Positions 4,908-38,138 of a stretch of DNA of 64,000 bases are shown piece by piece. A program made the translations under genes and the position numbers. The stretch is taken from the IMG/VR virus record IMGVR_UViG_3300036791_000462, positions 43,111 to 107,110 of that record; one strand, 5' to 3'. How positions within the stretch are numbered: position 1 is the stretch's first letter; each line of letters begins with the position of its first letter. The stretch is from a virus. The notes beneath the pieces were generated by a model. The model saw only the letters and a list, made by a program, of their open reading frames with translations, was not told the DNA's origin and did no database searches.

Positions 4908-5639
4908 CTAGCCTGCAGCGGCTCCAGTATCGCCCCCACTTCCTCCGGTCCTTTCATCGTCGGACTGCAAGTCACGCGGAACCCCGAAGTCGGCAGCCAG
5001 TTGCGGGTCGATGGGAGGTGCCCCTTGATCCCACCCCGGCGGCGGTGTCCACGTTTGCTTGCCCGCACCCTTGCGATAGCGCAGCGGTTCCGGGGAGCCC
5101 GCCTCGAACGGCACGTCGATTCGCATCCCGGCGTCACGAATCTGCGTTTCGGTCATCCCCCCGGCCGGTAGCTCACTGGCCTGCGGGGGGTTCGGCAGGT
5201 CGCTGCTTGAGTCCGCTTCGCTCAACTGGTTCAAGTCCTGCAGCCACTGCGGGTCGTCGCCCGCGAAGTCCTCGTCCACCGGTCCTTCGGGCTCGGCGAC
5301 GCCCTGCACCGGCTCGGTCAGACGGTGCCTGCCGCCGACCATCCCGGCGATCTCCTCGGCGCTGGACGGCCACAGGTCATCCTGCGCCTGGGGGTTGGTC
5401 ATCCACCCGTTGTCGTTCTCAGAGAACGTGTCGCCGTCACCCGGTCCTGTCTGGCGGTACGGTGTCGTCCCGTCACGCAGCCAGTAGGTGTAGTCGCCGC
5501 CTTCGTAGTCCGATCTTGGTGGTCCCGGCAGCGGGCGTTGCGGCAGTGTTTGCGACGGGTCCGTTTCGCGGTTGACCGTCCCGCCTGGATCGACTGGTGC
5601 GAGCGGGTCGCGGGCCTCGTCCAACTCGTCGGCCATCAC
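4908..5639 (-). CDS. Acidic, Pro/Asp-rich hypothetical protein coupled to the zeta/NTase effector gene
   Basis: GTGA overlap with 5636..8494; low-complexity acidic sequence. Confidence 0.6.
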   Translation of the reverse strand: MMADELDEARDPLAPVDPGGTVNRETDPSQTLPQRPLPGPPRSDYEGGDYTYWLRDGTTPYRQTGPGDGDTFSENDNGWMTNPQAQDDLWPSSAEEIAGMVGGRHRLTEPVQGVAEPEGPVDEDFAGDDPQWLQDLNQLSEADSSSDLPNPPQASELPAGGMTETQIRDAGMRIDVPFEAGSPEPLRYRKGAGKQTWTPPPGWDQGAPPIDPQLAADFGVPRDLQSDDERTGGSGGDTGAAAG

Positions 5640-8494
5640 GCCACCCTCGGGCGCAGCACCCCGGTGAGCCGATTGCCCCGACGGGCGCGGTTACCTGTTG
5701 GTTCCTGGGTGCCTGCCAGGATCGCGTTGGTGCGCGCGGTCAGGCCCTTCAGTTCTCTGGCGGCAGCGCGCTGCTCGTCGCGGGTGCCGAGAATCACCTC
5801 GTGCGGGTCCGCGACGAGCCCGCCGTGCTGGGACACGCCCCACGCCCGGTCGTAGTACGGCTTCGCGGCTTTCTGCAGGTCCGCGACAACCTGTTTCTCG
5901 GCCGGTGTCGGCTCGCGTTTCTGCTGTTTGGCAAGCTCCTCGACCTGGCGTTCCAACTCGTAGTAGTGGTGGCCCGGCCCGATCTCCTTCGTCCACCACA
6001 GCGGGTTGGTGTTGACCTGAAGCTCGGTCGTCAGCCCACCGGCGGACTCGGGTGCGCGCAGGATCAGGGTCGTGTCGCCGTACCCGTTCTCCGTCGAGCG
6101 GTTCGACCCGTTCGCGTCCACCAGACGGCGTTTCATCCGCTCCACCGTCCAGCCCTTCGCAGCGACCTGCTGGCGGATCGTCGCGAGCGTGTGTTCGAGA
6201 TCCTGCGCGGTCGGGACGGTCACCGTCGCACGAACCGCGTCGTGCAGGTCAGAGAAGTCGTTCGCGTGACCCAGCGACGCCTGCTTCGCAATCGCTCGCT
6301 TCAGGCTCTTGATCGGCGCGACGATCAGGTGCGGCTGGTCCATGTTGTGCTGGATGTCCTGCCCGGTCTGCTGGAAGCTCTTGCCCTGCGAAATGTCGTG
6401 CTTGGTCCCGCCAAGCTGGTCGATCACGCCGGTGCCGATGTCGAGGATCTGCTGCAACGCCGGAAGCGTTTTCGACTCGCCTCGCGCGAGAAGCTCCTGC
6501 GGGTCGCTGACCGGCTGTTTCTTCTTCTCCCCGTCGCCGGTGATCCCGAACTGGTCGCGCATCGACTGAAACTCCTTCGAGACGTTGCGGCCCACACGAC
6601 GCTCGACCTCGGGGTTCGTTCGGGTCGTCTGCCCGCCCGTTTTCCAGACGCCGCGCTTCGGGCCTGCCACGTCACGCACGCCAGGTAGCTGCTCGTGCGC
6701 CTTGGCGAGCACCTGCGCGTACGCGCGGTCGGCAGGGATCGCGTAGTCCGAACCGTCGAGCTTCTTGTCCTCCGCGCCCGACGGGAAGCTGATCTTGCCG
6801 TCCGGCAGCGCTTGGGCTACGAGCCTCGGTGGGTTCGGTCGGCCGGACGCTTCGTCCAACCCCTGGTTGGTGTCGTACACGTGGACTCGCGCGCCCATCT
6901 GCGCCGCCTTGTCCATCACGCCGGGGATCGTCGCGGACACGTCGCGGTGGACCGCGCGCATGATCACGTCGGGGATCATGCGACCGCCCGCCTCGGCGTT
7001 CGCACGCGCCTTCTCGGCACGGTCCTTCGCGCGGCTGATCGCGTCGTTCGTCGGCGTGCTGACGTAGGAGATGCGCGGGTTGACGTACCCCGCGTCGGTG
7101 AACGACTTGACGCGCTTGGCGACCTCGTCGGCGTTCGTGTTCGTGATCCCGTCCACGATCACGTTCAGCTTGCGCTTCTGCGCCTCCGCCATCACGTGCT
7201 GCGCGATGTCCCACGCCTCGGCGTACACCCGCAGGTTCGCCTCCGGGTCATCCGCCGAGCTTGCCTGAAACTCGGGTAGCTCCGCCTTGATCAGGTCCGG
7301 GTCGAGGAGCAGCGCGTTCTGAGGCAGCGCATCCGGGTCGTCAGGGTGCTTCTGGCTGAGCATGTGCAACAGCCCGCCCTTCCCGGCCGCGTACCCACCG
7401 CCGGTGAACATCACGGTCGGCTTGCCGGACGGCGCTTTCAGATACGAGTTCGTTTTGCTGAGCCCCCGGTCGTTGCCCTTCGCGTCCAGGTTGTGCTCGC
7501 GCAGCATCATGTCGATGATCCGCGCGTGCAGCTTCGCGCGGGACTGGTCCCACGTGCCGTCCGGGTTGCGGTACATCTCAGCGGTCGTCGGCCTGGTGGT
7601 CGCATCCTCCGCGTACGCCAACAGCGTTTTCTGGGACACGCGGCCCGCATCGTTGAAGTGAACCTCCGCTTGGCTCAGATCATGCTCACCGCGAACCTGC
7701 CCAGCGGCCGGGGTTGAGCGTGACAGCCCGACGCGACGCACCCGGCGGCCGATCCGCTTCTCCAGCGACTTGGTGCGCCGTTCGTACAGCGCCGACTGGC
7801 CGTGCGCGAGCGTCTGCTTACGGTCGTGGATCGCGTTGGTGTGCGCCTGCTCCTTCGCGAAGTGCTCCGCCGCCGCCGCGTGGTCACCACGTTTCGCTGC
7901 CGCGTTGCCCGCCTTGCGTTCCTGGGTCGCGAGCCGCTCCAGGCGCTGGCGTCCAGCGAGGTGAACCTTCTGCGCGTCGGTGGCCTCCTGTTTGAACTGG
8001 CGCAGGCTCATCGCCTCCGGGAGCGTGCCGCCAGTCTGCACCGCCTTACCCGCAGGATGCGGTTCGGGGGTCGCGAACACGGGAAACTTCCCGCCTCTGA
8101 CGCCAGCCCGGCGGCCCTTCAGCACCTTGATCTCGCCCGGCATCCGCTCCGTCGGTGGGCGCTGGATCGTTTTCAGACGCGGGCCTGAGTGAACCGCTTT
8201 CGCGATCCGGTTCTGCGGCACGACCTCGTGGGAGCGGAGCTTCGCGTCGGCAAACGCGCCGCCGAGCTTGTCGATCCACTTCCCGCCACGGCCGCGCGGG
8301 TGCAGCACCTCGGTCCAGTCAACCTCCTGCAGGCCGGTGAGCGCCAGGTCGAGCACGCCTGCCTGCTCCCACAGGTCAAGTTCGGTGTGCGACACCCAGC
8401 CGATCCGGTCCAGATCGTCGGTGGTGGCGAGCCCCCGGCGCAAGAACTCCTCTCGGAGGGTGGCGTTCTCGCGCGCAATGGTGGCAGCCTCCAT
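5636..8494 (-). CDS. Tagged polyvalent effector: zeta-toxin-like P-loop kinase + C-terminal RelA/SpoT-like nucleotidyltransferase
   Basis: Tag LQEVDWTEVLHPRGRGGKWI. Zeta motifs TGGGYAAGKG, LLDPDLIKAELPEF, NVIVDG, GRMIP. RSH-synthetase-like motifs PIKSLKRAIAK, DLHDAVRATV, GYGD, ELQV. Confidence 0.75.
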   Translation of the reverse strand: MEAATIARENATLREEFLRRGLATTDDLDRIGWVSHTELDLWEQAGVLDLALTGLQEVDWTEVLHPRGRGGKWIDKLGGAFADAKLRSHEVVPQNRIAKAVHSGPRLKTIQRPPTERMPGEIKVLKGRRAGVRGGKFPVFATPEPHPAGKAVQTGGTLPEAMSLRQFKQEATDAQKVHLAGRQRLERLATQERKAGNAAAKRGDHAAAAEHFAKEQAHTNAIHDRKQTLAHGQSALYERRTKSLEKRIGRRVRRVGLSRSTPAAGQVRGEHDLSQAEVHFNDAGRVSQKTLLAYAEDATTRPTTAEMYRNPDGTWDQSRAKLHARIIDMMLREHNLDAKGNDRGLSKTNSYLKAPSGKPTVMFTGGGYAAGKGGLLHMLSQKHPDDPDALPQNALLLDPDLIKAELPEFQASSADDPEANLRVYAEAWDIAQHVMAEAQKRKLNVIVDGITNTNADEVAKRVKSFTDAGYVNPRISYVSTPTNDAISRAKDRAEKARANAEAGGRMIPDVIMRAVHRDVSATIPGVMDKAAQMGARVHVYDTNQGLDEASGRPNPPRLVAQALPDGKISFPSGAEDKKLDGSDYAIPADRAYAQVLAKAHEQLPGVRDVAGPKRGVWKTGGQTTRTNPEVERRVGRNVSKEFQSMRDQFGITGDGEKKKQPVSDPQELLARGESKTLPALQQILDIGTGVIDQLGGTKHDISQGKSFQQTGQDIQHNMDQPHLIVAPIKSLKRAIAKQASLGHANDFSDLHDAVRATVTVPTAQDLEHTLATIRQQVAAKGWTVERMKRRLVDANGSNRSTENGYGDTTLILRAPESAGGLTTELQVNTNPLWWTKEIGPGHHYYELERQVEELAKQQKREPTPAEKQVVADLQKAAKPYYDRAWGVSQHGGLVADPHEVILGTRDEQRAAARELKGLTARTNAILAGTQEPTGNRARRGNRLTGVLRPRVA

Positions 8495-9038: not shown

Positions 9039-9048
9039 GTTGATCCTG

Positions 9049-9090: not shown

Positions 9091-9103
9091 GTAGGTCAGG
9101 CGA

Positions 9104-14378: not shown

Positions 14379-14386
14379 GCGGCATT

Positions 14387-25543: not shown

Positions 25544-25577
25544 ACGCTCACGTTGTGTGCTATGTTCTTAGTGCGGG
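25544..25577 (+). promoter_or_regulatory. Plus-strand cassette-type promoter driving a non-coding region and tRNA
   Basis: CAC-GTT-GTGTGCTA-TGTT followed by GTGCGG, as in the other cassettes. Confidence 0.6.
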
Positions 25578-25938: not shown

Positions 25939-26011
25939 GCCGCTGTCGTCTAGCAGGTCAGGACGCCGCCCTCTCAAGGCGGAAGCACGGGTTCGAATCC
26001 CGTTGGCGGTG
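25939..26011 (+). tRNA. tRNA-Glu (CTC), no encoded CCA
   Basis: GCCGCTG/TGGCGGT acceptor, CCGCC-CTCTCAA-GGCGG anticodon arm, ACGGG-TTCGAAT-CCCGT T arm. Confidence 0.9.
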
Positions 26012-26014
26012 CTC

Positions 26015-26407
26015 TTACAGCGTTGCGCCTGCTGTCGCGAGGATGTTGCGCAGCGTGCCTGTCGGGATCGAGCCGGTGTGCGTTGGGACGATCACGCGCC
26101 TGCCGCCGTCGGGGTGTTCGAACACGGCGTGGCTGCCTTTCTGGCCGACTCGTTTGAACCCGGCTTTGCGGAGCATGCGGTGGATCTGCTTGGCTGTCAT
26201 CGCTGGCAGCTTCGAGGGTGGGTGCGCTGCGTGGATCACGCCTGAGAGCGTGAACTCGCCGCTGCGGTTACGCGGGTGCAGGATCTCGTCCCACGCGAAG
26301 TGCGACGGGTCGCGACGTTCGAGGATCAGGGTCGCGGCGCGCATCGCTACCGGTCGGCTCAGGCCGCGCGCTTCGTGGATCGCGACCTGGTCCCAGTAGC
26401 CGGGCAT
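26015..26407 (-). CDS. hicA: HicA-family RNase with N-terminal variant tag
   Basis: AWDEILHPRNRSGEF then AKQIHRMLRKAGFKRVGQKGSHAVFEHPDGGRRVIVPTH...IPTGTLRNIL. Confidence 0.85.
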   Translation of the reverse strand: MPGYWDQVAIHEARGLSRPVAMRAATLILERRDPSHFAWDEILHPRNRSGEFTLSGVIHAAHPPSKLPAMTAKQIHRMLRKAGFKRVGQKGSHAVFEHPDGGRRVIVPTHTGSIPTGTLRNILATAGATL

Positions 26408-26618
26408 GGCCGGATCGTAAGGTGGTCTGGCGACCCGGTCACAGATCGAACCGGGTCGCCTGGTTTTTGCGGAGGCTCTGGCGGGATCTGTCCCTCAGGT
26501 TGGGTCGCCGCCCTCCTCGTGCTCTACGTCTCTAACCGTGCTCGCGGGCTCGGGTGTGACATCCACCTCGTAACGTCTGACGTGTGTTGTAGGTTCCCGC
26601 GTGGCACGGCTGGTCTGA

Positions 26619-26646
26619 GCGCCCTCGCTGAAAATGCGGGGGCGCT
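26619..26646 (-). terminator. Hairpin after the lysis cluster
   Basis: GCGCCCTCGC-TGAAAAT-GCGGGGGCGC. Confidence 0.45.
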
Positions 26647-26843
26647 GCCTTATGCGGTCTGGAAGTCGATGTGGTCGATGTCGGCCGGGTCGTACACGGT
26701 CAGCGTCGGCGTACCGCTCTCGTCGGTGGTGGTCACGTGAACGTTGCCGTCGCCGACGATCCCGATGTGGGTCACGTCGATGGGGGTGTCGGGGTCTGCG
26801 GCGAGGAACACGCGGCCGGGCGTGTCGGTGGGCCGGTACGCCA

Positions 26844-27749
26844 TCACGGTGCTGGGGCGAACGGGATCAGGCTCGCGACCTTACCCTTGTCGCTCCCGTT
26901 CCAGGCTGTCTCGCCCTTCGGCTGCCACGTGTAGACGGTCGAGCCGTCGGTCAGGGTGACGAACACGTGCAGCACGCCCTGGGCGTTGGTCGAAGCGGAG
27001 ATGCCTCGGATCTCACTGGGCGCGTCGGCGAGCTTCACGAGCTTCGCGACCTGTTTGCCAGCGGCTCCGCCGTTCCAGGCTGACTCGCCTTTCTTCTGCC
27101 ACGTGTACCAGACGGCTTTGCGTTGCGGTCCGACCACGAACGTGTGCAGGCTGCCGTTGTCCGCGACGGCGGATGCGATCATCTCTATCTCCTCAGGCTT
27201 GGGCGGTGTCGGTTCGGGCGAGCTTCCGCTGGCGTGTTGTCGGGCGGCTGCCAGGATCGCCTGGAGCGGGAAACCGGGGCCGCAATCGCTGTGCCCGCCT
27301 CCTGCTGCGCCTAGCTGCTTGTGCTCGCAAACCCCGGCGCTGGCACCCTGTGCTTGGGCGTCGGACAGCGCGACTATCGGAATGCCGAAGTACGTGGCCT
27401 CCTCGGCGATCCAACGAGCTACGTTGTCGAGCATGGCGGGGTGGGCGTTCCATTCCTCCCGGCTCCAGTGCGCAAAAGCACAGATTTCCATGTTCATGCT
27501 CGGCGGGTTGTAGGCGGCACAGGTCCAGGCCTTGTCGGGCCGTCGCACGTACTCGCCGATCACCCCTGGGGTGGAGTCGATGCCGACGTGCGAGCTTGCT
27601 TGGACGTTGCCCCTGAAGTACGCCCCGAGCGCCTGAAACGTCAAGGCCCCTTCAGCGGTGTGGCAAACCAGGAGCCTTACCCGCGCGCCTCCGCGCGAGG
27701 AGTAGTTAGGGCTCGGGATCAGGGTTCGTTTCAGCGGCGGTGTCGGCAT
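26844..27749 (-). CDS. N-acetylmuramoyl-L-alanine amidase (Amidase_2) endolysin with two C-terminal beta-propeller-like repeats
   Basis: SPNYSSR, LLVCHTAEG, ASSH, AWTC..YN...MEIC, HSDCGPGFP; repeats G.LH.FV...YTWQ.KGE.AWNG x2. Confidence 0.85.
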   Translation of the reverse strand: MPTPPLKRTLIPSPNYSSRGGARVRLLVCHTAEGALTFQALGAYFRGNVQASSHVGIDSTPGVIGEYVRRPDKAWTCAAYNPPSMNMEICAFAHWSREEWNAHPAMLDNVARWIAEEATYFGIPIVALSDAQAQGASAGVCEHKQLGAAGGGHSDCGPGFPLQAILAAARQHASGSSPEPTPPKPEEIEMIASAVADNGSLHTFVVGPQRKAVWYTWQKKGESAWNGGAAGKQVAKLVKLADAPSEIRGISASTNAQGVLHVFVTLTDGSTVYTWQPKGETAWNGSDKGKVASLIPFAPAP

Positions 27750-27860
27750 GTGGGATCTCCTCCGGGTGCGACGGTTCTTCGTCGGGCTCGGGGTTGGGCT
27801 CCGGCCAGTCTGGGTCGTTCTCCTGGTCGTAGATCGTGTGCTCGTAGTCCTCCTGGTCTG

Positions 27861-28181
27861 TCACTTCGTGCCTCCTGCGGCTTGCTTGGGCTGTTCGATC
27901 TGCACTGGCTCTGGGACGGGCGTGGCGGCGATCCCCTTCTGCACCTTCTGCTCCCACGCAATCCAGCCTCGCAGCCAGGACTGCTGGCCGAGCCAGACGA
28001 GCAGGCTGGTGAGCCCGAACACGAGCGCTTGGGTCAGCCACTTGGTGATCGAGGATGCGTTGGTGTGCCAGTTGGTGAGGAAGTGCAGATGGACGAATAA
28101 CCAATCCACCACGGCCCCCGAGAGGATCGCGATATACGGACCGGCGAACGCGACGATCCGGTTGAGTGGCACGTTACTCAT
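27861..28181 (-). CDS. Holin candidate (2 TM)
   Basis: Two hydrophobic segments; lies between the two endolysins. Confidence 0.55.
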   Translation of the reverse strand: MSNVPLNRIVAFAGPYIAILSGAVVDWLFVHLHFLTNWHTNASSITKWLTQALVFGLTSLLVWLGQQSWLRGWIAWEQKVQKGIAATPVPEPVQIEQPKQAAGGTK

Positions 28182-28188
28182 GAATACC

Positions 28189-28986
28189 TCACTTCTTGCG
28201 CTTGTACTTGTCGCGCAGCAGCTTGATCGTTTGCGGTCCGACAACGCCGTCGGCGGTGAGCTTGTTCTTCTTCTGGAAGTTCTGCACCGCCTTGGTCGTG
28301 CGGGCTCCGTAGTCGCCGTCGATGGCCGGTGGGATCTTCTTCGCCTTGTCGCCCTTCGGTAGGTAGCCGCCGCGCAGCAGGTAGGTCTGGACCTCTTTCA
28401 CGTCGTTGCCGGTGTCGCCCTGGCGGAGCGTGCGGTCAGGGAGCTTGCCGGTCTTGCCAGGCACCACGGCGTCGCCGAGCGCGCTGGCTCGCGCGTAGCG
28501 TTGCTGGCGGTCTGTGAGCCCGTTGGTACCGCCGTTGATCCGCCGGGTCGCGGCGTTCACGTCGCGCTGGTCAGCGATGGGGTTCAGCCCGTGCTGCCAC
28601 CACCACCAGGCGCTGATCCGGAAGGCGTTGCGCGGCTGTGCGGCTAGTTCCGGGTGGTTGATCAGGTCAAGGCCGAGCGCTTTGCCTGCGGCGGCGTAGT
28701 TCGTGCGGCCGGTCAGTTGGATCGGGCCGCGTCCCTTGTACCGTCGGCCGTCGCCAGGTTGGGTGTTGCCGAGATCGGCGCGGCCTTGGTACGCGGCCCC
28801 GGAGGCGATCTCCTCCATGTACTTGAGGCTGCCGCTTTCGTGTCCCACCTGGCTTAGCCACATTTGCGCGCGTTCGGGGGTGTTGATCTGGAACTCGTTC
28901 ATCGCCTGTTCCATGAACGGGAGGTACGCCTGGGCGGTGTGGCGCGGTAGGCCGGGCATCGCTTTCATCAGCGTTTCGACGTTCAC
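28189..28986 (-). CDS. GH19 (chitinase-like) endolysin with C-terminal peptidoglycan-binding domain
   Basis: QVGHESG, YKGRGPIQLTGRTNY, TRRINGGTNGLTDR; LRQGDTG.DVKEVQ...DGDYG..T..AV..FQ....L.ADGVVGPQT. Confidence 0.92.
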   Translation of the reverse strand: MNVETLMKAMPGLPRHTAQAYLPFMEQAMNEFQINTPERAQMWLSQVGHESGSLKYMEEIASGAAYQGRADLGNTQPGDGRRYKGRGPIQLTGRTNYAAAGKALGLDLINHPELAAQPRNAFRISAWWWWQHGLNPIADQRDVNAATRRINGGTNGLTDRQQRYARASALGDAVVPGKTGKLPDRTLRQGDTGNDVKEVQTYLLRGGYLPKGDKAKKIPPAIDGDYGARTTKAVQNFQKKNKLTADGVVGPQTIKLLRDKYKRKK

Positions 28987-29522
28987 GCGGGCTCGTCTTC
29001 GGTGGGGTGCGCGGGTGTTTCGGACGGCTCATCGGGTGCGATGGGCACGCCGTCGTCGTCGGTGTCGGGCACGTCGGCGTCGTCCAGTTCGGTGGGGTCG
29101 TCCGGCAGGTCAGTCACGCGGCGCTCCTCGCGGTTGGGTGTGTGCCGCCGACTGTACGCCCGCGCCCGGCGCGGACCGCAATCAGGCTTCGATCTGCGCC
29201 TGCGGTCTGTGTGGCAGCAGGCGCTCGCCGGACGGTAGCTCGCGGTGCGTCATGTCGATGGGCACGAGGTTGACGATGATCACGATCCCGCCGGGTTCGA
29301 ACGTCGCCGAGTGCCCGCGCTCCACCCTGATCGGCGTCAGGTCCAGTCGGCCCCACTCGCCGCGAACCTGCATCGCGCCACGGGTGATCCAGCCAACGTC
29401 CTTGATGTCCCACGTCACCGGGTCGAGGTTGCGAACTGTCAGGTCCGCGTAAAGCGCGAGCGCGATCAGCTTCGGTGGTGCCCAGACCTCGTCGGTGCCG
29501 ACGGTGACGAGCGCGTGGGCGG

Positions 29523-29732
29523 TCACGCCGTGTCGGGCGACTGGTCTTCGGACAGGCCCGAGCGGTCCATGTCAAGCAGGTAGGTTCCGACCCGGTCGGA
29601 CAGGTTCTCCCTGTCGGTCGTGTCGAGGTCGGTGTCCGCGTTCAGTTGCTGGCGGATCTGCTTGAGCCCTTCCCGGTCGGGGAAGCGGCGCTCGATCTCG
29701 TCCGCGTATGCGTTTGCGTCCATAGCGCTCAT
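29523..29732 (-). CDS. Small helical protein directly downstream of the effector array
   Basis: 69 aa; position compatible with an immunity or chaperone gene. Confidence 0.45.
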   Translation of the reverse strand: MSAMDANAYADEIERRFPDREGLKQIRQQLNADTDLDTTDRENLSDRVGTYLLDMDRSGLSEDQSPDTA

Positions 29733-29733
29733 C

Positions 29734-32409
29734 TTAGGCTAATCCCTCGGTTTTGAATGTCCGGTCCAGGTCGCTGACGTTGATGCCCTTCTCGGCCAGC
29801 GGGCCTAGTGATGCTGCGTCTCGCAGCCGTGCCAGATACGCCTGTGCCGGGGAGATCTTCATCACTCCCAGCGCGTTGGACACGTCCCGGTGGATCCGGT
29901 CGATCTGCTCAGCCGGAATGTTTTGGCCCTGCATCCACCTGTCGGCGACTGTCATCGCGTGGTGATGCTCAGCGCTGCGCACTCTTGGCGCTTCCGCTGT
30001 CACCGGTCGCGGGGTCGGCGCTGACGGTTGGTCGATCTGGTCGCCCGCGACCCACAGGCGTCCGCCGTCTTTGAGCACGACCAGCGCGTTGTTCTCGTTC
30101 ACGTCGAAGACCGTGCCGTCCAGTTGCCGTCCTGAGCCTGCCAGCGCGAACTTGACCTGGTCGCCCGCCTGCACCTTGCGTCCGCTGGCGGTGGTGACGG
30201 TCGGCATCTCCGTTTTGATGTCGGACAGGTCGGGTGTGACGACGGGGTCAAACGTGCTGTGCGTGATTTGCTTCGCGTCGGGGTGAAGGAGCGCGCCTCG
30301 TAGCGTCTTGACTCCTGGTCGTGACTGTTGCGCGAGCGCGATCAACTCCTGGTGCTGGTCGGCGGTGGCGCGCTGGAACTTCAGTTCGCGGAGCTTGGAG
30401 CGGCGCTGCTCGTCGCTCAGGCCCGCGCTGCGCATGATCGCCCCAACCTGCGCACGGTATTTCGGGTAGGTGCCGCGCACGCGGTAATCCATCGGGTGGC
30501 GTTTGACGGCTTCGAGCACGTCGGTCATCCCGTAGCTGCGTAGCCAGTCGGCGACCTCCAGGTGTCCTGTCTCCTCGGTCAGCGCCTCCTCAACGTTGAC
30601 GCCGAACCCCTTGTAGTCCTGTGCCTGGATGCCGCCGAGCACGCCGACGCCGTGGTTGATCTCGTGCTGGAGGATCTCCAGGTCGTTGTAGAAGTTCAGC
30701 CGCTCGTTGTCGGTCTGCTGCTTACCTTCGGCGCGGGTGGTGAGGAAGTCGCTGGCGTTGTCGAGGTAGCGCTGCTTGATCCCTATCGACCCGTTCCAGC
30801 GGTGGATGCCAGCGGCGTTGCGGGGGATCCGCTCGGCGTCCACGTGCTTGACGTTCTGCTCGGTTTCGTAGCGCTTGGCGAGTTCGTCCGCGCGGCCGAG
30901 TACGTCGGTCAGCAGTTCGTCCAGGTTCTTCGGCGCTTGGCCGTGTGGCAGCCGGGTGCGGTTCTGCGGGACGATCTCGACCTTCGAGATGTTCGGAGCG
31001 CGTCTGAGCGCGCCCCCGATGTACTGCGGCTCGACGGTGAGTCTCACGGTCGAGCGGTCGGGCAGGACCAGCTTGCTGGAGAGCGTCGGCGTGGTGCCGG
31101 GCTCCTGGGGTAGCTTCACGGCCCCGAGACGTTCCAGTAGCTGCGTCGCGCTGTACACGTCCATGTTTCCTAGCTCGTGCAGCAGCGCCTTGTTGTCACG
31201 GCCGACCAGCGCCGCTTTGATCGCCTCGTCCTTCTGCACGGCCTCCTCGCGCTTGCGCTTGATCTCGTCCTGAGCCTCCTGCCAGACGCGCACGTCGTCG
31301 GCGCGCTGCTCGGGCGTCACGATCATGTGGTCCCAAACCATCGAGCCGTGGCCCGCGTTGACGACCTCCAGCGGACGTTGGTACTCGGGGTCTGAGGGGT
31401 TGCCGCCTCGGCGCATGTGCAGCACGAGCGAGTCGGGCGGCTGGCCGGGGCCGACCTCCTTGTCGAACCGGGTGACGCCCTCCACGCCTTCGGGGAGGCT
31501 GCCTGCGGATAGCTCGCCACGGTTCTGGGACACCTTCATCCGCCAGCCCGAGTCGATGGTGTGCAGCGCGTTGACGACAGTGTTGGCGTTGTCGCCCGGT
31601 TTGACGTGGGCGAACGGGTTCTCCTGGATCGCGGCGAGCTTCGCGCTCGCGACCTCGCTGTCGGTTGGGCGAAACGCGGTGACCTTGCCGACCTGCACGC
31701 CGCCGGGGGTGTCGTCCACACGCAGCGCACGGCCCTGCCCGTTGGGGTGAACGAACTCCATCCAGTCGTCGCCGTTTTCGTTGACGACCTTCGGGCGGCT
31801 GTAGCCCGCACCGCGCATCGAGTTGCGAACGGTCTGCGGGTCGCCGTGGGTCAGCAGCGCGGCGACCGGGTCGCTGTTCGGGATCGGGGGGTGCAGTTCG
31901 GCGCTGGCGTCGGCGACGGTGCCGCCTGGTGCTTCGCCGAACCCTGGTCCCTTGAGCGTCAGGTGCAGGTCCGCTCCCTGCGTGTGCGAACGGAAGACCT
32001 GTTTGCGGTTGTCGCCGCTGACGTAGTGGAAGTCAAGCGGCATCGGGTGCCCGCCGCGAGCGGCGGTTTCGAGCGACATCGAGCCGCTGCGGATCTCGCT
32101 CATCGTCTGGCCGATCAGCCCGGCGGCGAGGTCGTGCGACGGGTGTGTCTCATCGAGGATCGCGGGCGGGCGCTCCAGCGTTTCGATCCACTTGCCGCCG
32201 CGTCCTCGCGGGTGCTCAAACGCTTTGAAGTCCGCTTCGCTGATCTCGCCGTACAGCGACTGTTCGATCTCGCGGTCGATCTGCTCAAGCTCGGCGCGGT
32301 CCTGTGCGCTCATCTGATCCCAGTTGCGCCGGGCCTGTTCGATCTCCTGCTCGGTGGGTTCCTCAGCCCCGACCTGGCCGTCGGTGATCTTCAGCGGTTC
32401 GGGGTTCAC
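29734..32409 (-). CDS. Tagged polyvalent effector with zincin metallopeptidase and SH3/KOW-like domain
   Basis: Tag ISEADFKAFEHPRGRGGKWI; LQHEINHGV...VEEALTE; VQAGDQVKF...GTVFDV...ALVVL. Confidence 0.65.
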   Translation of the reverse strand: MNPEPLKITDGQVGAEEPTEQEIEQARRNWDQMSAQDRAELEQIDREIEQSLYGEISEADFKAFEHPRGRGGKWIETLERPPAILDETHPSHDLAAGLIGQTMSEIRSGSMSLETAARGGHPMPLDFHYVSGDNRKQVFRSHTQGADLHLTLKGPGFGEAPGGTVADASAELHPPIPNSDPVAALLTHGDPQTVRNSMRGAGYSRPKVVNENGDDWMEFVHPNGQGRALRVDDTPGGVQVGKVTAFRPTDSEVASAKLAAIQENPFAHVKPGDNANTVVNALHTIDSGWRMKVSQNRGELSAGSLPEGVEGVTRFDKEVGPGQPPDSLVLHMRRGGNPSDPEYQRPLEVVNAGHGSMVWDHMIVTPEQRADDVRVWQEAQDEIKRKREEAVQKDEAIKAALVGRDNKALLHELGNMDVYSATQLLERLGAVKLPQEPGTTPTLSSKLVLPDRSTVRLTVEPQYIGGALRRAPNISKVEIVPQNRTRLPHGQAPKNLDELLTDVLGRADELAKRYETEQNVKHVDAERIPRNAAGIHRWNGSIGIKQRYLDNASDFLTTRAEGKQQTDNERLNFYNDLEILQHEINHGVGVLGGIQAQDYKGFGVNVEEALTEETGHLEVADWLRSYGMTDVLEAVKRHPMDYRVRGTYPKYRAQVGAIMRSAGLSDEQRRSKLRELKFQRATADQHQELIALAQQSRPGVKTLRGALLHPDAKQITHSTFDPVVTPDLSDIKTEMPTVTTASGRKVQAGDQVKFALAGSGRQLDGTVFDVNENNALVVLKDGGRLWVAGDQIDQPSAPTPRPVTAEAPRVRSAEHHHAMTVADRWMQGQNIPAEQIDRIHRDVSNALGVMKISPAQAYLARLRDAASLGPLAEKGINVSDLDRTFKTEGLA

Positions 32410-33932
32410 GTCTTCCTCCGCTTCGCTGCGGCGGCGGCTCTGCGTGCCGTCTCGGCTTCCACGTCGGCGTCCTGGCGGCGCTGCTGTTCAGTCCAGACGA
32501 CGGCCTGTAGCTCGTGCGGTTTGAGCCCCACCCTGTCGGCGACGGCGTGCACACGGTTCGCGGTCCACAGGTAGCCGCTGTTCTTGGCGGTGGGTTTACC
32601 TGAGCCGATCACGATCTCGCCCGCCTTGTCGTAGTCGGCACGGGCGGTTTCGCCGAGCAGCGCGCGGGCCATCAGCGTGTCCACGGTGACGGTCGTCGGC
32701 TGGTCGGGGAACGCGAGGTTGTTGTAGAAGCTGCGGGTCTTCGGGTAGCTCAGCACCGCGTCGGGGTTCTCGCCTCGGTACAGGCGCAGCGCGGCTTTCA
32801 GCGAGTTGCGCATCATCGTCGGGCGCTCCAGCCTGGCAGCGAGCGCGTTCGGGTCTTCGTTGGGATGCGCCCTGGCGATCTTCATCGCGCGCAGCGCCGC
32901 TTCGAGGTTCTCGTACTTGCCCGCTTTCGGGCCGGTCTGCCACTGCCAGCGCATGCGCGGTGAGGTCGCGGCAACCATCGCGGTCAGCACCGCCGGGTCC
33001 ACGTTGTTCTTTGCGGCGACCTGCCCGATCAGGTTGTGCGCGTCGGCGTACCAGCGCGCGTCGTGCTCGCCGTGACCGGTGCTCATCGCCTGGCGGTACA
33101 TCTCCTCGAAGCGAGCCTCCGCCTGGGCGTCGGTTAGCTCCACGCGGCTGTGTTCGTGTCCGCGCTGCTCCAGCGGCGTGACGCGGCCGAGGTCGCCCTG
33201 TTCCTGGGCGGTCGGTTCGCGGGTGTGCTTGTCCCACTCCTCGGGGAGTCCCAGCCCGATGCCCTTCTTGCCGGGCGCGGTGTAGACGGTGACGTGCGGC
33301 GGCGGCACGGGGATCTTCTCGCCCGCCTGTTCGGAGAGCTTGTCGTACAGATCGGAGGCACCCTCGACTTTTGCGGGGATCACGAGCGAACGTCGATCAC
33401 CCTTCTCGGCGATACGCCACGGCGGTCCGATGTGCGTGACGCTCACCGGCGCGTTCTGCACCTGGTTGGCCATCTGCTTCAGCGTCGCCTCGTCGGTGAT
33501 GGAGGTCGCGCGCTTGACCCGCCGGGAGTCGAACATCGTGACGTGCGGGTTTCGCACCTTCTCCCAGCGCTCACCGCCGACGGTGATCGTTTGCGGCAGG
33601 TCGGGCAGCTTGACCTCCAGCCCCCGGTAGTGCTCGCCCTTGTGCAGCGAGGAGGTGATCCACTTGCCCCCACGTCCGCGCGGGTGCTCCAGGTCATCCC
33701 AGACGCTTTCGGTTAGCTCGCTGTCGCCGTTGCCCGCGAGCGCCTGCACCTGCTGCCAGAACTCCCAGTCGTCGTCGTGGGTCGCGTCGTCCGGTGGGAG
33801 CGACAGGTCGGGCCAGCGGTCGCTGACAGTCGCAGCGGCTTGCGCCCAGTCTGGGCCGCCGCGTTTGACGACCTGCAGATCGCCGGGTTTCCAGGCGAAG
33901 CGGTCGGTGGGGTCGGGTTCCTCGACGGCCAT
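32406..33932 (-). CDS. Tagged effector: 2H phosphoesterase + HhH-glycosylase-like (DUF7178-like) domain
   Basis: Tag LTESVWDDLEHPRGRGGKWI; two PHVT motifs; WY..AH, AATSPR..W..N, PKTRSFYNNL, VTVD, ELQAVVW. Confidence 0.7.
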   Translation of the reverse strand: MAVEEPDPTDRFAWKPGDLQVVKRGGPDWAQAAATVSDRWPDLSLPPDDATHDDDWEFWQQVQALAGNGDSELTESVWDDLEHPRGRGGKWITSSLHKGEHYRGLEVKLPDLPQTITVGGERWEKVRNPHVTMFDSRRVKRATSITDEATLKQMANQVQNAPVSVTHIGPPWRIAEKGDRRSLVIPAKVEGASDLYDKLSEQAGEKIPVPPPHVTVYTAPGKKGIGLGLPEEWDKHTREPTAQEQGDLGRVTPLEQRGHEHSRVELTDAQAEARFEEMYRQAMSTGHGEHDARWYADAHNLIGQVAAKNNVDPAVLTAMVAATSPRMRWQWQTGPKAGKYENLEAALRAMKIARAHPNEDPNALAARLERPTMMRNSLKAALRLYRGENPDAVLSYPKTRSFYNNLAFPDQPTTVTVDTLMARALLGETARADYDKAGEIVIGSGKPTAKNSGYLWTANRVHAVADRVGLKPHELQAVVWTEQQRRQDADVEAETARRAAAAAKRRKT

Positions 33933-33942
33933 TCTACCTATT

Positions 33943-35535
33943 TTAGCGCACATCCTGTGCTTGCGGCGGCAGGGCTTCCAGGATCACGCTGCGGTTGCCC
34001 CACTGGTCCTCGTTGACCTCCGCGACGCGGAACGTCGTGTTGCGGGGCAGCAGCACCTCGGACTCGGGTAGTCCCGAGCCGCCGCCGATGTGCAGTCCTT
34101 CCTCGAACGCGAAGGCGTGGATGCCAGCCGGTAGCCGGATCGAGGTCACCTCGTCGCCGGGTCTGGCGGCTATCGGGCTGCGCAGTGACGTGGACACGAA
34201 CGCGGGATCGCGGACCTCGTCGCCGACGTGCAGGTTCGCGAACTGGCCGACCGGGCCGCCTCGGTAGACGGTGACGTTCTCCTTCAGGGTGGACTTGCCG
34301 ATGGCGGAGTCGAGCCGGTCGATCATCTGTCCGACGGTCGCGCCGCTCGGGGGTGTCGAGTACCACGCCGACGGCGAGTCGCGGGTGACCTCGGGGTTGA
34401 GGTTGCGCAGGAACTCGTTGACGTGCACGAACCCGGACGCCTGGTAGGACGACAGCGCCCACTGTTCGTCGGTTGTCGTGCCGCTGCTGGTGAACGCCTT
34501 GTTCGCGAACTCGCGGGCGGATTGCATCTGGGTTTTGAACTCGCCCTCGTCGGATGGTTCGCGAGCACCGAACCCCTGCGTCTGCCACGACTCGGGCTCG
34601 GGCCACTTCGCAGGCTCAGGCTCTGGCGGCTGCTCGCGCAGGTCAAGCTCGCCTTTCCAGTGGGAGCCGATCATCAGTTCCTTGCCCGGCCAGTTGCGCG
34701 TCTTGGGCGGGCCGGTGCCGGTCGAGTAGTCGTGACGTTCGGGTGGGGTTTCCCACCACCAGTGATCGAGCCCCCATCCGGCTAGCTCCGCTTCGGAGCC
34801 GAACTCCCCGGCGGTCAGCTTGCGCTCCAGTTCGGTCATCGTCTGCTCGGTGGCGCGGCTGGCGATCTGTTTCCAGCGGCCGTCCTTCTTGGCGTCGGCG
34901 AGGATCTGTTTCTGCACCGCCTGCTTGTTGCCGGTCCAGACGAACCCGCGTCTCGCCCAGGCGTAACCGCCGACGGACACCGCTTCCACATCGGCCTTGT
35001 CCACCCCGGCGTCGCGCAGCGTGCCGAGGAAGTGGTTGGTGAACGCCGCCCCGAACCCGTTGCCCTGCTCGGAGCCGCGCAGGTAGATGTTCGACAGTTC
35101 GGCATGCCGTTCGCCACGGAGGTTCGGTGGCTTCAGCGTGACGCGAGCGAGCCCCACCGGTTCGATCTCCCCGACCTTCTGGAGGTTGAGCCACACCTCC
35201 CCGTACAGGTTCTGGGTTTTGGTGCGACCGGAGCGGACAGCGACGATCCCGGCGTGCTGGAACCCGTCCATCGCTTTGGCGAAGTCCTCGCCGGTGAAGC
35301 TCTCCCCGACACGTGGCGCTGCGGGTTTCGCGACACCTGGCTCGGGCGCAGATGTGTGGTGGTGGATGCCGCTGGTGATCCACTCGCCGCCCCGACCGCG
35401 TGGGTGTAGCCACTCGATGAAGTGCGCTTCCTGTAGCTCCTCGCCGTCGTTGTCGGTTGGCACGTCCACGGTCGCGAGCAGGCGTGCGACCTCGTCTTCG
35501 GGTACGCCGAGGAACAACGCAGTCGGAACGGTCAT
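33943..35535 (-). CDS. Tagged effector: GNAT acetyltransferase + VIP2/Alt-like ADP-ribosyltransferase
   Basis: Tag LQEAHFIEWLHPRGRGGEWI; QGNGFG, GGYAWARRGF; Y......VNEFLR, VYRG, FVSTS, ESEVLLPR (R-S-E class). Confidence 0.85.
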   Translation of the reverse strand: MTVPTALFLGVPEDEVARLLATVDVPTDNDGEELQEAHFIEWLHPRGRGGEWITSGIHHHTSAPEPGVAKPAAPRVGESFTGEDFAKAMDGFQHAGIVAVRSGRTKTQNLYGEVWLNLQKVGEIEPVGLARVTLKPPNLRGERHAELSNIYLRGSEQGNGFGAAFTNHFLGTLRDAGVDKADVEAVSVGGYAWARRGFVWTGNKQAVQKQILADAKKDGRWKQIASRATEQTMTELERKLTAGEFGSEAELAGWGLDHWWWETPPERHDYSTGTGPPKTRNWPGKELMIGSHWKGELDLREQPPEPEPAKWPEPESWQTQGFGAREPSDEGEFKTQMQSAREFANKAFTSSGTTTDEQWALSSYQASGFVHVNEFLRNLNPEVTRDSPSAWYSTPPSGATVGQMIDRLDSAIGKSTLKENVTVYRGGPVGQFANLHVGDEVRDPAFVSTSLRSPIAARPGDEVTSIRLPAGIHAFAFEEGLHIGGGSGLPESEVLLPRNTTFRVAEVNEDQWGNRSVILEALPPQAQDVR

Positions 35536-38138
35536 TCCGGTTTGACTCCGTTCATCCAGTCACCGATCTGCCGCACCCAGCCGGGCCACTCCACCGCTTT
35601 GTAGTACGGGCCTGTCACGAGCGATGCCGCCTCCGCGAACGTTTCGGTCGCGTAGCCCCCGGCAATGTTCGAGTACGGCCCGGTGGCGCGTCGCTGCGCC
35701 GCTCCCTCGTAGTCGGGGTTGCCCGCCGCGTACTGGCTGAGCCCCTTCGCGACCGCGCTCCAGTCGATCTCACCGTTGTGCTTTGGCAGCATGTCGATGA
35801 ACTGCTGGCGCTGGGTGTCGCTCAGCGCTTCCCACAGCCCGTGGCCCCACTCGTGGCGCAGCACGCCCGCCGGGTCATTGGTGGACGTGAACTGGTCGCC
35901 AGGTTTCGATGGCTTCGGGCCGTAACGGTCAGGGAACTCGTCGGCGAGCCGCTGGCCGACAGACATCGCGGGAGCGTTGATCGAGGTGAGGTTCTGAGGC
36001 ACGTTGCGGCTGGCGGTCACGAACACGTCCCGGACGCCTCCGGGGGCACGGCCATAGCCCTTTTCGGAGATCAGGATCTGGTTGTCCTCGACGGCGGGCC
36101 AGCGGTCACGCAACGCCGCGAAGCGCGGCAGCGCATCGTTCGCGGCGTTCGCCGCACGCACCGCTCGGTACGCGCGTTTGCCGTCCTCGCCAGTGTCGGC
36201 TGCGACCGCGCCACGGTAGTTCTTGCGCTGCGACGCGAGCGTCGTCGCTCTGAACTTGTCGGTCAGATCCTGCGCTGAGTTGGTGATCGTCTCGACGGCG
36301 TTCGGGTCGCTCAGGAACGCGCCCTTGCCGATCCGCTCGGGGTACTCCAACAGCTTCGAGTTGACGGTCGCGCGCAGTTCGCCGGTGTCCCACATCGACA
36401 CGAACACATCGACCGTGCCCATGTCGAGTTGGTCGTTCGCCTTCGCGTTGGCGAGGAAGTCGGGAAGCTGTGCCAGCCCCGTCTCCAGGTCGCGCTGTGC
36501 CCGGTCGGCGTAGCCACTCGCGGCCATCTGCGCCGCTTCGGCGTAGCTGCCAGCGAGCCTGGTCGGCGTGCGCCTGGTCGGCGGTGGCGACGGCGGCGGG
36601 TTCAGCAGGTGGCTGATCGCCTGCACGGTCTGCTCGGGCGTCTGCTGCGAGGAGTCAACGATGTGAGTCGCGCCGCTTCTCGCCGCGTCGATTCGGGGAG
36701 CGTCAAGCTGGTCGCGTTCGGTGATTGCCGCGTGCGCCTGCGGGACGGTCAGCCCGCGCGACTCCGCCCGGCGCTGCGCACGGACGTGCGGGTCGGCGGT
36801 CAGGAAGATCCGGTCGTGCGCGTTCAGCGCGCTGCCAGCGTCGCGGCCGTCGGCAACGAACAGTCCGCCTTCGGCGATGCGCTGGTGGATCGCCGAGTCC
36901 ACAGCGCTGCGAACCTCCGTCTCGCCGCCGAGCGCGGACGCGGCACGGTCCACGTTGGTGTTGCGGATCTGCTGGGAGATGTCACGGCCGTCAAGCGTGA
37001 CAGTCGAACCGTCAGCGCGGATCCGTCCGGCGCGGAGCGCTCTGACAGGGTCGATTCCCATCGTCTTCGCGAGCCCTGCCGCGCGGTAGTGAGCGCCGGT
37101 ATCGACGTACGTCCCGCCGAGCCGTTGCGCGAGCCTGCGAGCGACGGTGCTTTTGCCGGACGCGGCCGGGCCGTCGATGGCGATCACGTGCGCGGTGCCG
37201 AGCTTGTCGATCCATTCGCCGCCGCGCCCACGCGGGTGCTGTAGCTCCGTCCAGACGCTTTCCTGTATGCCCTGTAGCTGGGCGAGTGCTCGCGCCACGC
37301 TGGGGCGCACCTCCAGCCCGCTGAGCCACTGCTCGACCTCCCCTGGGTCTGCGACCACCCTGATCGCTTCCTCCAGCGCCAGAGCCGCCCTGGCGTCTCT
37401 GGCGGCCTGTGCCGGTTCGGGCACCGTGTCACCCGGCCCGAGCGGTTTCAGCCAGCAGCCGCAGCCGGTGTGGATCGGCGGTGGGATCGCGTCGAGCACG
37501 CCCCACGGCCACGCTTTGCCCGCGAGCGCGAGGCAGCCTCGGGTGTGGTTCTTGCGGTCGCCGAGCATCCACTTCGCACCGAGCGGCGACCGTGCTTTGA
37601 CGAGCGCGTTCTCGACGTGCGCGGTGGCTCTCGCCATCATCGCCTGTTGGCGCAGCTTGGAGTAGTGCTGCTCGCGGCTGATGATCGCGTTGATCCGCGC
37701 CTGCTGTTTGCTGTCGGGAAGCTGCCCTGCAGCGTTCAGGTCGTCCTGGACGCGCGCCAACGCTTTCTGCTGAAACAGCCGCTCGTATTGCATCTCCCTG
37801 GCGACAGCTTCGCGGATCACGGCCGGGTCGGCGTTCGGGTAGCGGCTGCGCAGTTGCTTGGTCAGCCAGTCGGCCGAGTCAGCGTGGTGGCGGCGGAACA
37901 GCGCACGCAGGATGCGCAGCGCGACGGCGATCTTCAGGCCGGTGACCGCAATCCCAACCGGCACCTTCGCGGCAGCGACAGCGGCCTGGGCTGGCAGCGT
38001 GACGGTGACCGCCGGTATCGCCGCCACGCCGACGGCGACCTTAGCGGCCTGCCCTGCAGCAGCGGCTTTCAGGATCTGCTGGACCGACGACGACTGCGGC
38101 GGCTGTTGGGGTTGCTGCCCCTGGTCGGGAACGGCCAC
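35532..38138 (-). CDS. MuF-like head morphogenesis protein fused via the tag to cytidylate kinase and a zincin toxin domain
   Basis: Downstream of portal. MuF-like C.ALAGK...PPPIHTGCGC; tag IQESVWTELQHPRGRGGEWI; VIAIDGPAASGKST, VDTGAHYRA, ADGRDAG, FLTA (Cmk); RHEWGH...SQYA...ETFAE. Confidence 0.8.
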   Translation of the reverse strand: MAVPDQGQQPQQPPQSSSVQQILKAAAAGQAAKVAVGVAAIPAVTVTLPAQAAVAAAKVPVGIAVTGLKIAVALRILRALFRRHHADSADWLTKQLRSRYPNADPAVIREAVAREMQYERLFQQKALARVQDDLNAAGQLPDSKQQARINAIISREQHYSKLRQQAMMARATAHVENALVKARSPLGAKWMLGDRKNHTRGCLALAGKAWPWGVLDAIPPPIHTGCGCWLKPLGPGDTVPEPAQAARDARAALALEEAIRVVADPGEVEQWLSGLEVRPSVARALAQLQGIQESVWTELQHPRGRGGEWIDKLGTAHVIAIDGPAASGKSTVARRLAQRLGGTYVDTGAHYRAAGLAKTMGIDPVRALRAGRIRADGSTVTLDGRDISQQIRNTNVDRAASALGGETEVRSAVDSAIHQRIAEGGLFVADGRDAGSALNAHDRIFLTADPHVRAQRRAESRGLTVPQAHAAITERDQLDAPRIDAARSGATHIVDSSQQTPEQTVQAISHLLNPPPSPPPTRRTPTRLAGSYAEAAQMAASGYADRAQRDLETGLAQLPDFLANAKANDQLDMGTVDVFVSMWDTGELRATVNSKLLEYPERIGKGAFLSDPNAVETITNSAQDLTDKFRATTLASQRKNYRGAVAADTGEDGKRAYRAVRAANAANDALPRFAALRDRWPAVEDNQILISEKGYGRAPGGVRDVFVTASRNVPQNLTSINAPAMSVGQRLADEFPDRYGPKPSKPGDQFTSTNDPAGVLRHEWGHGLWEALSDTQRQQFIDMLPKHNGEIDWSAVAKGLSQYAAGNPDYEGAAQRRATGPYSNIAGGYATETFAEAASLVTGPYYKAVEWPGWVRQIGDWMNGVKPE

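Follow-up and report, generated by a model that had tools for sequence, protein, structure and literature searches.

A short peptide centred on the residues HPR (the tag) is found ahead of unrelated enzyme modules of a large myovirus and, on the evidence of sequence comparison, is a widespread marker, a kind of "punctuation", of the modules of phage polyvalent proteins. The DNA analysed here (the window) comprises 64,000 nt, positions 43,111 to 107,110 of the IMG/VR virus record IMGVR_UViG_3300036791_000462, which is 107,110 bp long and estimated to be 86% complete. An earlier note on the window had proposed that the tag is a portable label by which free-standing enzymes are loaded into virions and injected, and that an LxE motif at its start is a protease site. 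This interpretation is partly supported. The tag has held up as a portable label, being conserved at the peptide level and situated ahead of unrelated enzyme modules near the portal gene; LxE is a credible protease site in this lineage, but lies outside the universal motif. We lean, with a little more confidence than doubt, towards the view that the tag is a module-start label of head cargo which is exposed by a lineage-specific protease cut.

A six-frame scan of the window revealed five full copies of the motif [LI]xE-xx-[WF]-x4-HPRGRGG[KE]WI, all of them on the minus strand and with identical spacing, and no other such motif in any frame. These are LQEVDWTEVLHPRGRGGKWI at 8273-8332 (residues 55-74 of P0001; LQE-VDW-TEVL ahead of HPRGRGGKWI; 72.5 bits in a profile hidden Markov model (HMM) search), ISEADFKAFEHPRGRGGKWI at 32185-32244 (residues 56-75 of P0002; ISE-ADF-KAFE ahead of HPRGRGGKWI), LTESVWDDLEHPRGRGGKWI at 33657-33716 (residues 80-99 of P0003; LTE-SVW-DDLE ahead of HPRGRGGKWI), LQEAHFIEWLHPRGRGGEWI at 35377-35436 (residues 34-53 of P0004; LQE-AHF-IEWL ahead of HPRGRGGEWI), and IQESVWTELQHPRGRGGEWI at 37209-37268 (residues 291-310 of P0005, directly past a MuF-like domain; IQE-SVW-TELQ ahead of HPRGRGGEWI). 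The variant AWDEILHPRNRSGEF (26252-26296, minus strand; 67.6 bits) lacks the upstream LxE and is part of the N-terminal extension of a HicA toxin; the identical variant occurs on a 127-aa HicA homologue in a related 110-kb phage record (L034). The five copies and the HicA variant had all been located correctly in the earlier note, whose total of six is valid for the window; the record as a whole holds eight, as a profile of the six tags detected two further copies in a single 612-aa peptidoglycan (PG)-binding/ParB-like protein, 1.7-3.6 kb before the window start. LxE precedes six of the eight tags of this genome.

All six carriers in the window are encoded on the minus strand and in each of them the enzyme follows the tag, as the earlier note had stated. 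P0001 (5636-8494, 952 aa) consists of an acidic 57-aa leader, the tag, a Zeta-toxin-type kinase (aa 355-541), and a long C-terminal part. In P0002 (29734-32409, 891 aa) an acidic leader and the tag are followed by a module of no known family with a HExxH motif at aa 582 (HEINH; 30652-30666, minus strand). P0003 (32406-33953, 515 aa) carries, behind its acidic leader and tag, a module with two H-V-T motifs (aa 137 and 220) and a DUF7178 domain (aa 274-489), and P0004 (33943-35535, 530 aa) combines an acidic leader and the tag with a weak GNAT-like region (E 0.0084, below the Pfam cut-off) and a C-terminal ADP-ribosyltransferase (PF03496, aa 341-521). P0005 (35532-38138, 868 aa) starts with the MuF-like domain, followed by the sequence ALALEEA, the tag, a cytidylate kinase (aa 319-510), and a C-terminal zincin-like motif at aa 762 (HEWGH; 35841-35855, minus strand). 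P0006 (26015-26407, 130 aa) is the tagged HicA toxin (PF07927, aa 73-127; E 3.5e-17, above the Pfam cut-off). Several effector domains are thus joined in one polypeptide in P0005 (MuF-like, cytidylate kinase, and HExxH), P0004 (weak GNAT and ADP-ribosyltransferase), and the 612-aa protein (PG-binding and ParB-like). The HExxH regions of P0002 and P0005 gave no Pfam match; possibly they represent zincin-like peptidases, a kind common in polyvalent proteins.

Each of the four free-standing enzymes has an acidic leader (net charge -7 to -11), in accordance with the earlier note. In short-query BLAST searches the leaders of different tagged proteins did not match one another; only those of P0001 and P0003 matched orthologous leaders, the former being homologous to the leaders of other Zeta-type tagged proteins. 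The P0003 module between tag and DUF7178 (aa 100-260; 33174-33656, minus strand) contains PHVTMF at aa 137 and PHVTVY at aa 220, as seen in 2H phosphoesterases and 2',5' RNA ligases, and is possibly of the 2H type. PF13563 is present in other tagged proteins from large phage contigs, and CCA-adding enzymes occur in tagged proteins of close relatives. Together with the H-V-T motifs of P0003, these occurrences suggest a tRNA-repair theme among the cargo. The expression "toxin arsenal" used in the earlier note is too narrow for a cargo that, in this phage and its relatives, includes cytidylate kinase, CCA-adding enzyme, NUDIX, and PG-binding modules and, judged by its motifs only, a possible 2H-type module; the non-toxin cargo looks more like host-takeover or counter-defence enzymes.

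Across the 30 nt of the core, the copies agree on average at 23.9 positions, and 23.86 of 30 are expected from the codon usage of the genome given the peptides. Identical residues are encoded by identical codons with a frequency of 0.50 (0.46 expected). Since the core is as similar in DNA as codon usage alone would make it, selection acts on the tag peptide, which bears out the synonymous divergence and protein-level conservation noted earlier. An origin of the tag as DNA-level repeat or by gene conversion was ruled out by the same test. Comparing P0003 to the gene of a CCA-adding enzyme in relatives, homology comprises the leader and the tag and ends at the last tag residue. Relatives with approximately 80% identity in the protease/scaffold protein carry different cargo, e.g., a CCA-adding enzyme or GNAT. 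Owing to the fusions found in relatives and to this break of P0003 homology at the tag end, modules are, as far as these alignments tell, swapped, fused, and split at the tags.

A search of IMG/VR with the strict pattern yielded 28 loci, many of them in records of 110-127 kb. In relatives, the same modules are fused into polyproteins with one tag ahead of each and up to four tagged modules per protein. The 2,359-aa protein of L017, for instance, is composed of a MuF-like domain, a tag at residue 292, a NUDIX domain, three further tags at 1004, 1221, and 1948, and a Zeta domain, and that of L012 of a PG-binding module, two tags, and a Zeta domain. An exhaustive profile search of 1.84 billion representative proteins, clustered at 50% identity, detected the tag in 423 clusters at E<=1e-3 and in 85 at E<=1e-10, with up to 16 copies in one protein (5,313 aa; the next has 15 in 7,334 aa). 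The tag is thus no peculiarity of this phage. Tags are spaced at a median of 300 aa, and the C-terminal stretch behind the last one has a median length of 303 aa. In 60 of 148 proteins the first tag is situated within 60 residues of the N-terminus, and in 29 at position 250-350, which is the place after MuF in the relatives examined. The tag forms the extreme N-terminus in 19 of the 148 matches, and many tagged proteins have no leader. Domains of multi-tag proteins comprise InPase, ART-PolyVal, Zeta, ADP-ribosyltransferase, and a MuF match below the cut-off.

A DNA pattern for the more general form W-D-E-x2-HPRD-x2-G-[KR]-[FW] was run on viral stretches and found in at least 120 of them, with GC contents of 31-72%. 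In Gordonia phage GodonK, the giant protein gp67 has an N-terminal tag and its gene is located directly downstream of the portal gene; gp48 of Streptomyces phage Gilgamesh is another tagged protein of a cultured phage. A 131.5-kb linear, non-mobilizable Streptomyces replicon in PLSDB (L047, NZ_CP122459.1, 60823-88891) encodes a phage portal, followed by one small gene and a 6,290-aa "DEAD/DEAH helicase family" protein whose tag is situated at residue 27 and which shows no second one in its first 4,706 aa; this replicon is probably a phage-plasmid. The plasmid collection gave only marginal matches (E 3-9), that in L047 among them, in non-mobilizable actinomycete replicons of approximately 125-145 kb, further Streptomyces replicons of 125-131 kb included, and no tag match in a mobilizable or conjugative context. 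Two plasmid matches obtained with the window's own tag, both in tcmP genes, are probably due to chance. Among 185,579 species genomes the strict pattern has one confirmed locus, on the Nostocoides jenkinsii Ben 74 chromosome (L046:9683-10924, plus strand), a 413-aa open frame of no family in which the tag would lie about 9 residues from the N-terminus if the start is the Met of MSVHDESQHPRGRGGKW. Its neighbours, genes of unknown function beside housekeeping peptidases, are uninformative. None of the six 40-aa tag segments matched Pfam at E<=10, and against PDB sequences only chance matches of the tag were obtained. Neither the accessible part of Iyer et al. 2017, nor Jamet et al. 2017, nor the papers returned by full-text literature searches describe the tag.

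The universal core reads [WFY]-x-E-x-[LK]-HPR-x3-G-[KR]-[WF]. Counted from the His, 389 instances show conservation of an aromatic residue at -5, Glu at -3 (71%), Leu or Lys at -1, the H-P-R itself, Gly at +6, Lys or Arg at +7, and Trp or Phe at +8. [LIVM]xE at -10 to -8 is present in 96 of 387 tags overall (25%) and in 43 of 79 tags of the lineage of this phage (54%), with almost none at other offsets. LxE is therefore, by these counts, lineage-specific and not part of the universal motif, and the tag and the cut site are considered as two separable elements. Elsewhere in IMG/VR (L048-L127) the pre-tag residues fall into lineage groups of their own, for example x-K-W-D-E-S-Q-HPRD..G-Q-F, D-A-E-W-D-E-S-K, L-x-L-E-W-D-E-G, and, in low-GC contigs, F-D-S-V-[ND]-W-D-E; these groups may represent the cut sites of different protease types. 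Peptidase_S78 was not found in nine other tag-bearing viral records of the K-W-D-E and A-E-W-D-E groups. An AT-hook-like DNA-binding role, which HPRGRGGK might call to mind, was rejected since the general form, HPR-[GD]-[ED]-x-G after W-D-E, is not basic. In an AlphaFold2 (AF2) model of the tag alone, coil prevails; a short helix lies ahead of the core, and a bridge of two residues spans HPR...KW, giving a small hairpin (predicted local distance difference test score (pLDDT) 72). The tag forms no independent domain in this model, which is uninformative on function.

The enzyme that would cut at LxE is presumably a 494-aa protease/scaffold-like protein encoded outside the window, upstream of the capsid gene (17552-19036 of the record, minus strand). 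No Pfam family was assigned to it, and it has 336 homologues at E<=0.001, with no Pfam annotation in any of the 120 matches listed. An AF2 model of residues 55-240, based on 45 sequences (pLDDT 85), was compared to 48,161 PDB chains. The best match is T4 gp21 (5jbl; Z 8.7, root-mean-square deviation 3.4, 127 residues aligned), followed by the varicella-zoster virus protease (Z 6.7); the proteases of human cytomegalovirus and Kaposi's sarcoma-associated herpesvirus are also listed, and unrelated chains reach at most 5.3. Structure alignment hence places the protein with prohead proteases of the gp21/assemblin fold, and among its language-model neighbours in the ESM Atlas are Peptidase_S77/S80 clusters. 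According to the model, the protein represents an unannotated family with a T4 gp21-like fold. Foldseek gave no match to the model at E<=0.001, with herpesvirus proteases only among the weak rows, and phmmer gave no match of the protein to PDB. The aligned domain has His at aa 105 and Ser at aa 174 throughout its 45 rows, and a further His, at aa 82, is shared by at least 90% of them, positions being counted from the alignment offset.

The 494-aa protein contains 23 [LI]xE (6.8+-2.3 in residue shuffles) and 13 [LI]xE[AS] (1.3+-1.1), the latter a tenfold excess. About 12 of its [LIVM]xE positions are kept in six of six aligned homologues, one of which shares 44% identity. In the N-terminal part of the capsid protein, a conserved LEE|A is located shortly ahead of the HK97-fold match. 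In P0005, ALALEEA (aa 252-258; 37365-37385, minus strand) lies about 40 residues ahead of the tag and shows little or no variation among 14 MuF-like domains; in its resemblance to the capsid LEE|A, it is a candidate for a second protease site. Glu is the residue after which the proteases of this clade cut in each of T4, phiKZ, 201phi2-1, and SPN3US (PMC5694885). In view of the gp21-like fold, the tenfold excess of [LI]xE[AS], and the conserved LEE|A of the capsid protein, [LI]xE ahead of the tag is a credible prohead-protease site in this lineage. Indirectly, the pattern of sites fits a prohead protease that would act on scaffold, capsid protein, and cargo alike and cleave each behind [LI]xE.

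The MuF domain that the earlier note had assigned to P0005 was retained with reservation. The Pfam family PF04233 (Phage_Mu_F) was not detected in P0005; the search with this model gave one spurious plus-strand match. For the N-terminal 285 residues, PF04233 is a listed family in 6 of 10 rows of structure look-alikes from the ESM Atlas (template modelling score 0.53-0.69), and a PPxHxxCxC motif is present (PPIHTGCGC at aa 220). A MuF-like assignment is thus tentative, being derived only from predicted structure look-alikes, this motif, and the gene position past the portal. A complex prediction for the MuF-like domain (P0005 aa 60-285, 14-row alignment) and the tag (78-row alignment) scored 0.01 in a run without controls, which speaks neither for nor against binding.

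Nearly all genes of the record are located on the minus strand. Following this strand in the window, the large terminase gene (51226-52977; phrog_675, E 1.5e-78), which places the effector array in the packaging/head region, is followed by the portal gene P0007 (38696-40789, 697 aa; phrog_10963, E 8e-23) at the head of the array, a 166-aa gene of unknown function (38167-38667; phrog_1123) between the portal and the MuF-like gene, and the overlapping tagged genes P0005, P0004, P0003, and P0002. The array of four tagged genes (29734-38138) described in the earlier note is thus found where it had been placed, downstream of the portal, from which the 166-aa gene separates it, and downstream of P0005 there are only further tagged enzyme genes until two endolysin genes follow P0002. 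The order continues with the tagged HicA gene P0006, a glycosyltransferase gene, and the tagged P0001. A 243-aa protein without family match (4908-5639, minus strand) is encoded next, with a 4-nt overlap with the end of the Zeta-kinase gene. Beyond the window there follow the doubly tagged PG-binding protein, two giant proteins, the 494-aa protein, an HK97-type capsid protein, and tail sheath and tape measure proteins. The giant late proteins (1,406 and 1,994 aa; 21199-31660 of the record, minus strand) contain no tags, and the larger one has Laminin_G_3 (concanavalin-like) domains. The phage is a large myovirus with Mu-like head gene order. With large terminase, portal, capsid protein, sheath, and tape measure all identified, the packaging/late-region setting of polyvalent proteins is found here as well.

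The explanation we favor would connect these observations as follows. The peptide would be the module-start tag of polyvalent effectors, that is, of enzymes thought to be carried in the tailed-phage head and delivered with the DNA. In this myovirus lineage of approximately 125 kb, the effector set would be split over genes, namely the MuF-like protein and three translationally coupled genes past the portal together with three further tagged proteins elsewhere in the late region, the tag being kept on each module. Inside the prohead, the phage's own gp21-like, presumably Glu-specific protease would cut at [LI]xE, 8-10 residues ahead of the His, and thereby remove the acidic leader or the preceding module, so that every mature module would start about 7 residues ahead of the universal core. 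There the core would mark the polypeptide as head cargo, be it for incorporation, retention, or exit through the tail. A role of this kind is proposed because the core is the sole element common to the unrelated proteins and often forms the extreme N-terminus of the protein encoded after the portal. The motif, its distribution and place ahead of modules, the peptide-level selection, the protease fold, and the LxE excess come from the data; cleavage at LxE, packaging, delivery, and a reader of the core are what the explanation adds to them. It is tempting to go further and to regard the HPR core as a universal portable address label of tailed-phage head cargo, read by a conserved component of the portal vertex or exit pathway, with the upstream site serving only to expose the core at a free N-terminus; this wider version is possible, but we consider it doubtful.

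Several points weigh against a module-start label of head cargo. That the tagged proteins are present in virions and are cut is something we infer. LxE is missing at two of the eight copies, those of HicA and the N-terminal copy of the PG-binding protein, and HicA and the Zeta protein are encoded far from the portal. Searches with the Pfam S77 and S80 models failed to detect the putative protease of this genome, so that its family assignment depends on fold and language-model similarity. The scaffold-like part of this protein is helical and acidic, and the excess of LxE could partly reflect a helical periodicity which shuffling does not model. Some giant proteins have a single N-terminal tag and others one per module; a single role may not cover all of them. 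Finally, phages of 31-72% GC have almost the same core although their capsid, portal, and protease proteins have diverged strongly, which argues against a phage-specific structural receptor and favors a very conserved reader, of phage or host.

If that reader belongs to the host, the core would act after delivery, binding a conserved bacterial component or ligand (chaperone, protease adaptor, membrane, or nucleic acid) in order to refold, localise, or stabilise the module. The near-invariance of H-P-R, Gly, and the aromatic residues over this range of GC contents is in line with such a role, phage structural proteins being presumably too divergent to maintain an equally conserved pocket, and, going by its position in the sequence, the core would remain on the mature module after a cut at LxE. 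The binding partner is hypothetical, however, the tag matches no solved chain or Pfam family, and a host-side role alone leaves the strong positional link to portal and MuF genes unexplained. We rate it as distinctly unlikely. Somewhat less unlikely is a tag that is purely a processing signal, the core being an exosite for the prohead protease or for embedded zincin-like peptidases that sets the scissile bond at a fixed upstream distance and has no addressing role. The fixed offset of the candidate cut site (-10 to -8) from the core, the presence of one tag per module in many polyproteins, and the HExxH motifs of P0002 and P0005 agree with this, and domain release by embedded metallopeptidases is predicted by Iyer et al. 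2017 (PMC5512222). Yet extreme N-terminal tags, 9-30 residues from the Met, are common and have nothing ahead of them to release, and the lone N-terminal tag of the 6,290-aa protein (first 4,706 aa read) separates no modules. Many tagged proteins are devoid of a peptidase domain, and the pre-tag residues vary by lineage while the core is constant, which would be odd if one protease family read both. Because the core is often found at the extreme N-terminus or as the only tag of a giant protein, we do not regard it as merely a linker or cut site.

The tag might also be mainly a cassette-junction motif comparable to VENN in CdiA or the end of the Rhs core, i.e., a recombination boundary with little function of its own. 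The P0003 homology to the gene of relatives that stops exactly at the tag end, the varying module content of phages with approximately 80% identity in their protease/scaffold proteins, and the coincidence of gene fission and fusion points with tags would all suit a junction. The DNA identity of the core, however, is no higher than codon usage predicts and offers no extra nucleotide homology for recombination, and peptide-level conservation across phyla needs a function at the level of the protein. We consider this explanation quite improbable. Hardly any credence is given to the assumption that the tagged proteins are no virion cargo at all, but late cytoplasmic or lysis-released enzymes whose tag serves an assembly-independent regulation in the infected cell. 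HicA is indeed encoded beside endolysin genes, the genes of the Zeta and PG-binding proteins are distant from the portal, and a location in the virion is a prediction. Against this stand the recurrence of the MuF-like/portal gene association in unrelated phages, the fact that relatives have these modules fused to a preceding MuF-like head domain, and the match of the LxE site to the head protease.

It was already known that phages encode polyvalent proteins and toxins fused to MuF, and that head cargo can undergo Glu-specific processing. What is added here is the arrangement as split genes, a test at codon level, an assignment of the protease by its fold, and the finding that homology breaks exactly at the tag. 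To our knowledge, the choice of proteins loaded into tailed-phage heads is understood only for a few models, such as T4 leaders and covalent MuF or portal fusions. A peptide common to hundreds of protein clusters, in phages of 31-72% GC and at the starts of effector modules, would amount to a general rule. Should a head-cargo label at module starts prove true, injected effectors would be predictable from sequence alone, even counter-defence enzymes without a known family, P0002 among them; the shuffling, splitting, and fusing of effector sets would be explained, and foreign proteins could be loaded into phage capsids by means of a compact handle. The combination of a variable protease site and a constant tag gives rise to testable predictions for virion mass spectrometry.

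Among known systems, VENN of CdiA and the end of the Rhs core occur once, before the C-terminal toxin, in secreted bacterial proteins. Like these, the tag is a short conserved peptide which borders a constant part and exchangeable cargo, and the homology of relatives breaks at the motif; unlike them, it precedes every kind of module, occurs up to 16 times per protein, and displays no extra conservation at the DNA level. The cargo-loading peptides of encapsulins are usually C-terminal and their binding pocket has been solved. A short portable peptide that directs unrelated enzymes into an HK97-fold shell, as we propose from the sequence, would be similar in principle, but the consensus of the HPR tag is different.

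Jamet et al. 2017 (PMC5576092) described MuF polymorphic toxins in temperate phages. They resemble P0005 in their variable C-terminal enzymatic or toxic domains and adjoining portal gene, and the N-terminal domain of P0005 may correspond to their MuF head domain. In contrast, the phage studied here resembles a large myovirus with no sign of a temperate life, most tagged proteins have no MuF domain, and a junction motif such as the tag is not mentioned in that paper. The closest resemblance is to the polyvalent proteins, for which Iyer et al. 2017 (PMC5512222) predicted packaging, peptidase processing, and joint delivery with the DNA. As described there, strings of unrelated effectors (Zeta kinase, ADP-ribosyltransferase, GNAT, NUDIX, ParB-like, zincin peptidase, and MuF) are located beside portal-terminase genes, and InPase and ART-PolyVal, two families defined for polyvalent proteins in the same text, were found in multi-tag proteins. 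In the searchable text of that paper, no conserved module-start peptide is mentioned; further differences are the partial split of the effector set into genes that each keep the tag, and the likely processing enzyme, which would be the prohead protease instead of an embedded metallopeptidase.

With the processing of internal proteins and Alt by T4 gp21 and the Glu-specific processing of ejection proteins in phiKZ and SPN3US (PMC5694885), the system has in common cargo leaders of variable length, their candidate removal at x-x-Glu by a protease of the gp21 fold, and a scaffold and protease peppered with the same sites. The likeness to the T4 packaging leader assumed in the earlier note does not extend to the targeting element. 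In T4 this is a leader of about 10 residues which is removed, whereas the only common element here is located past the candidate cut; with a cut at LxE, the core would stay about 7 residues from the new N-terminus and be retained on the mature module, and consequently it is not a removable leader of the T4 type. Moreover, T4-type leaders are lineage-specific, whereas the tag is conserved across very distant phages.

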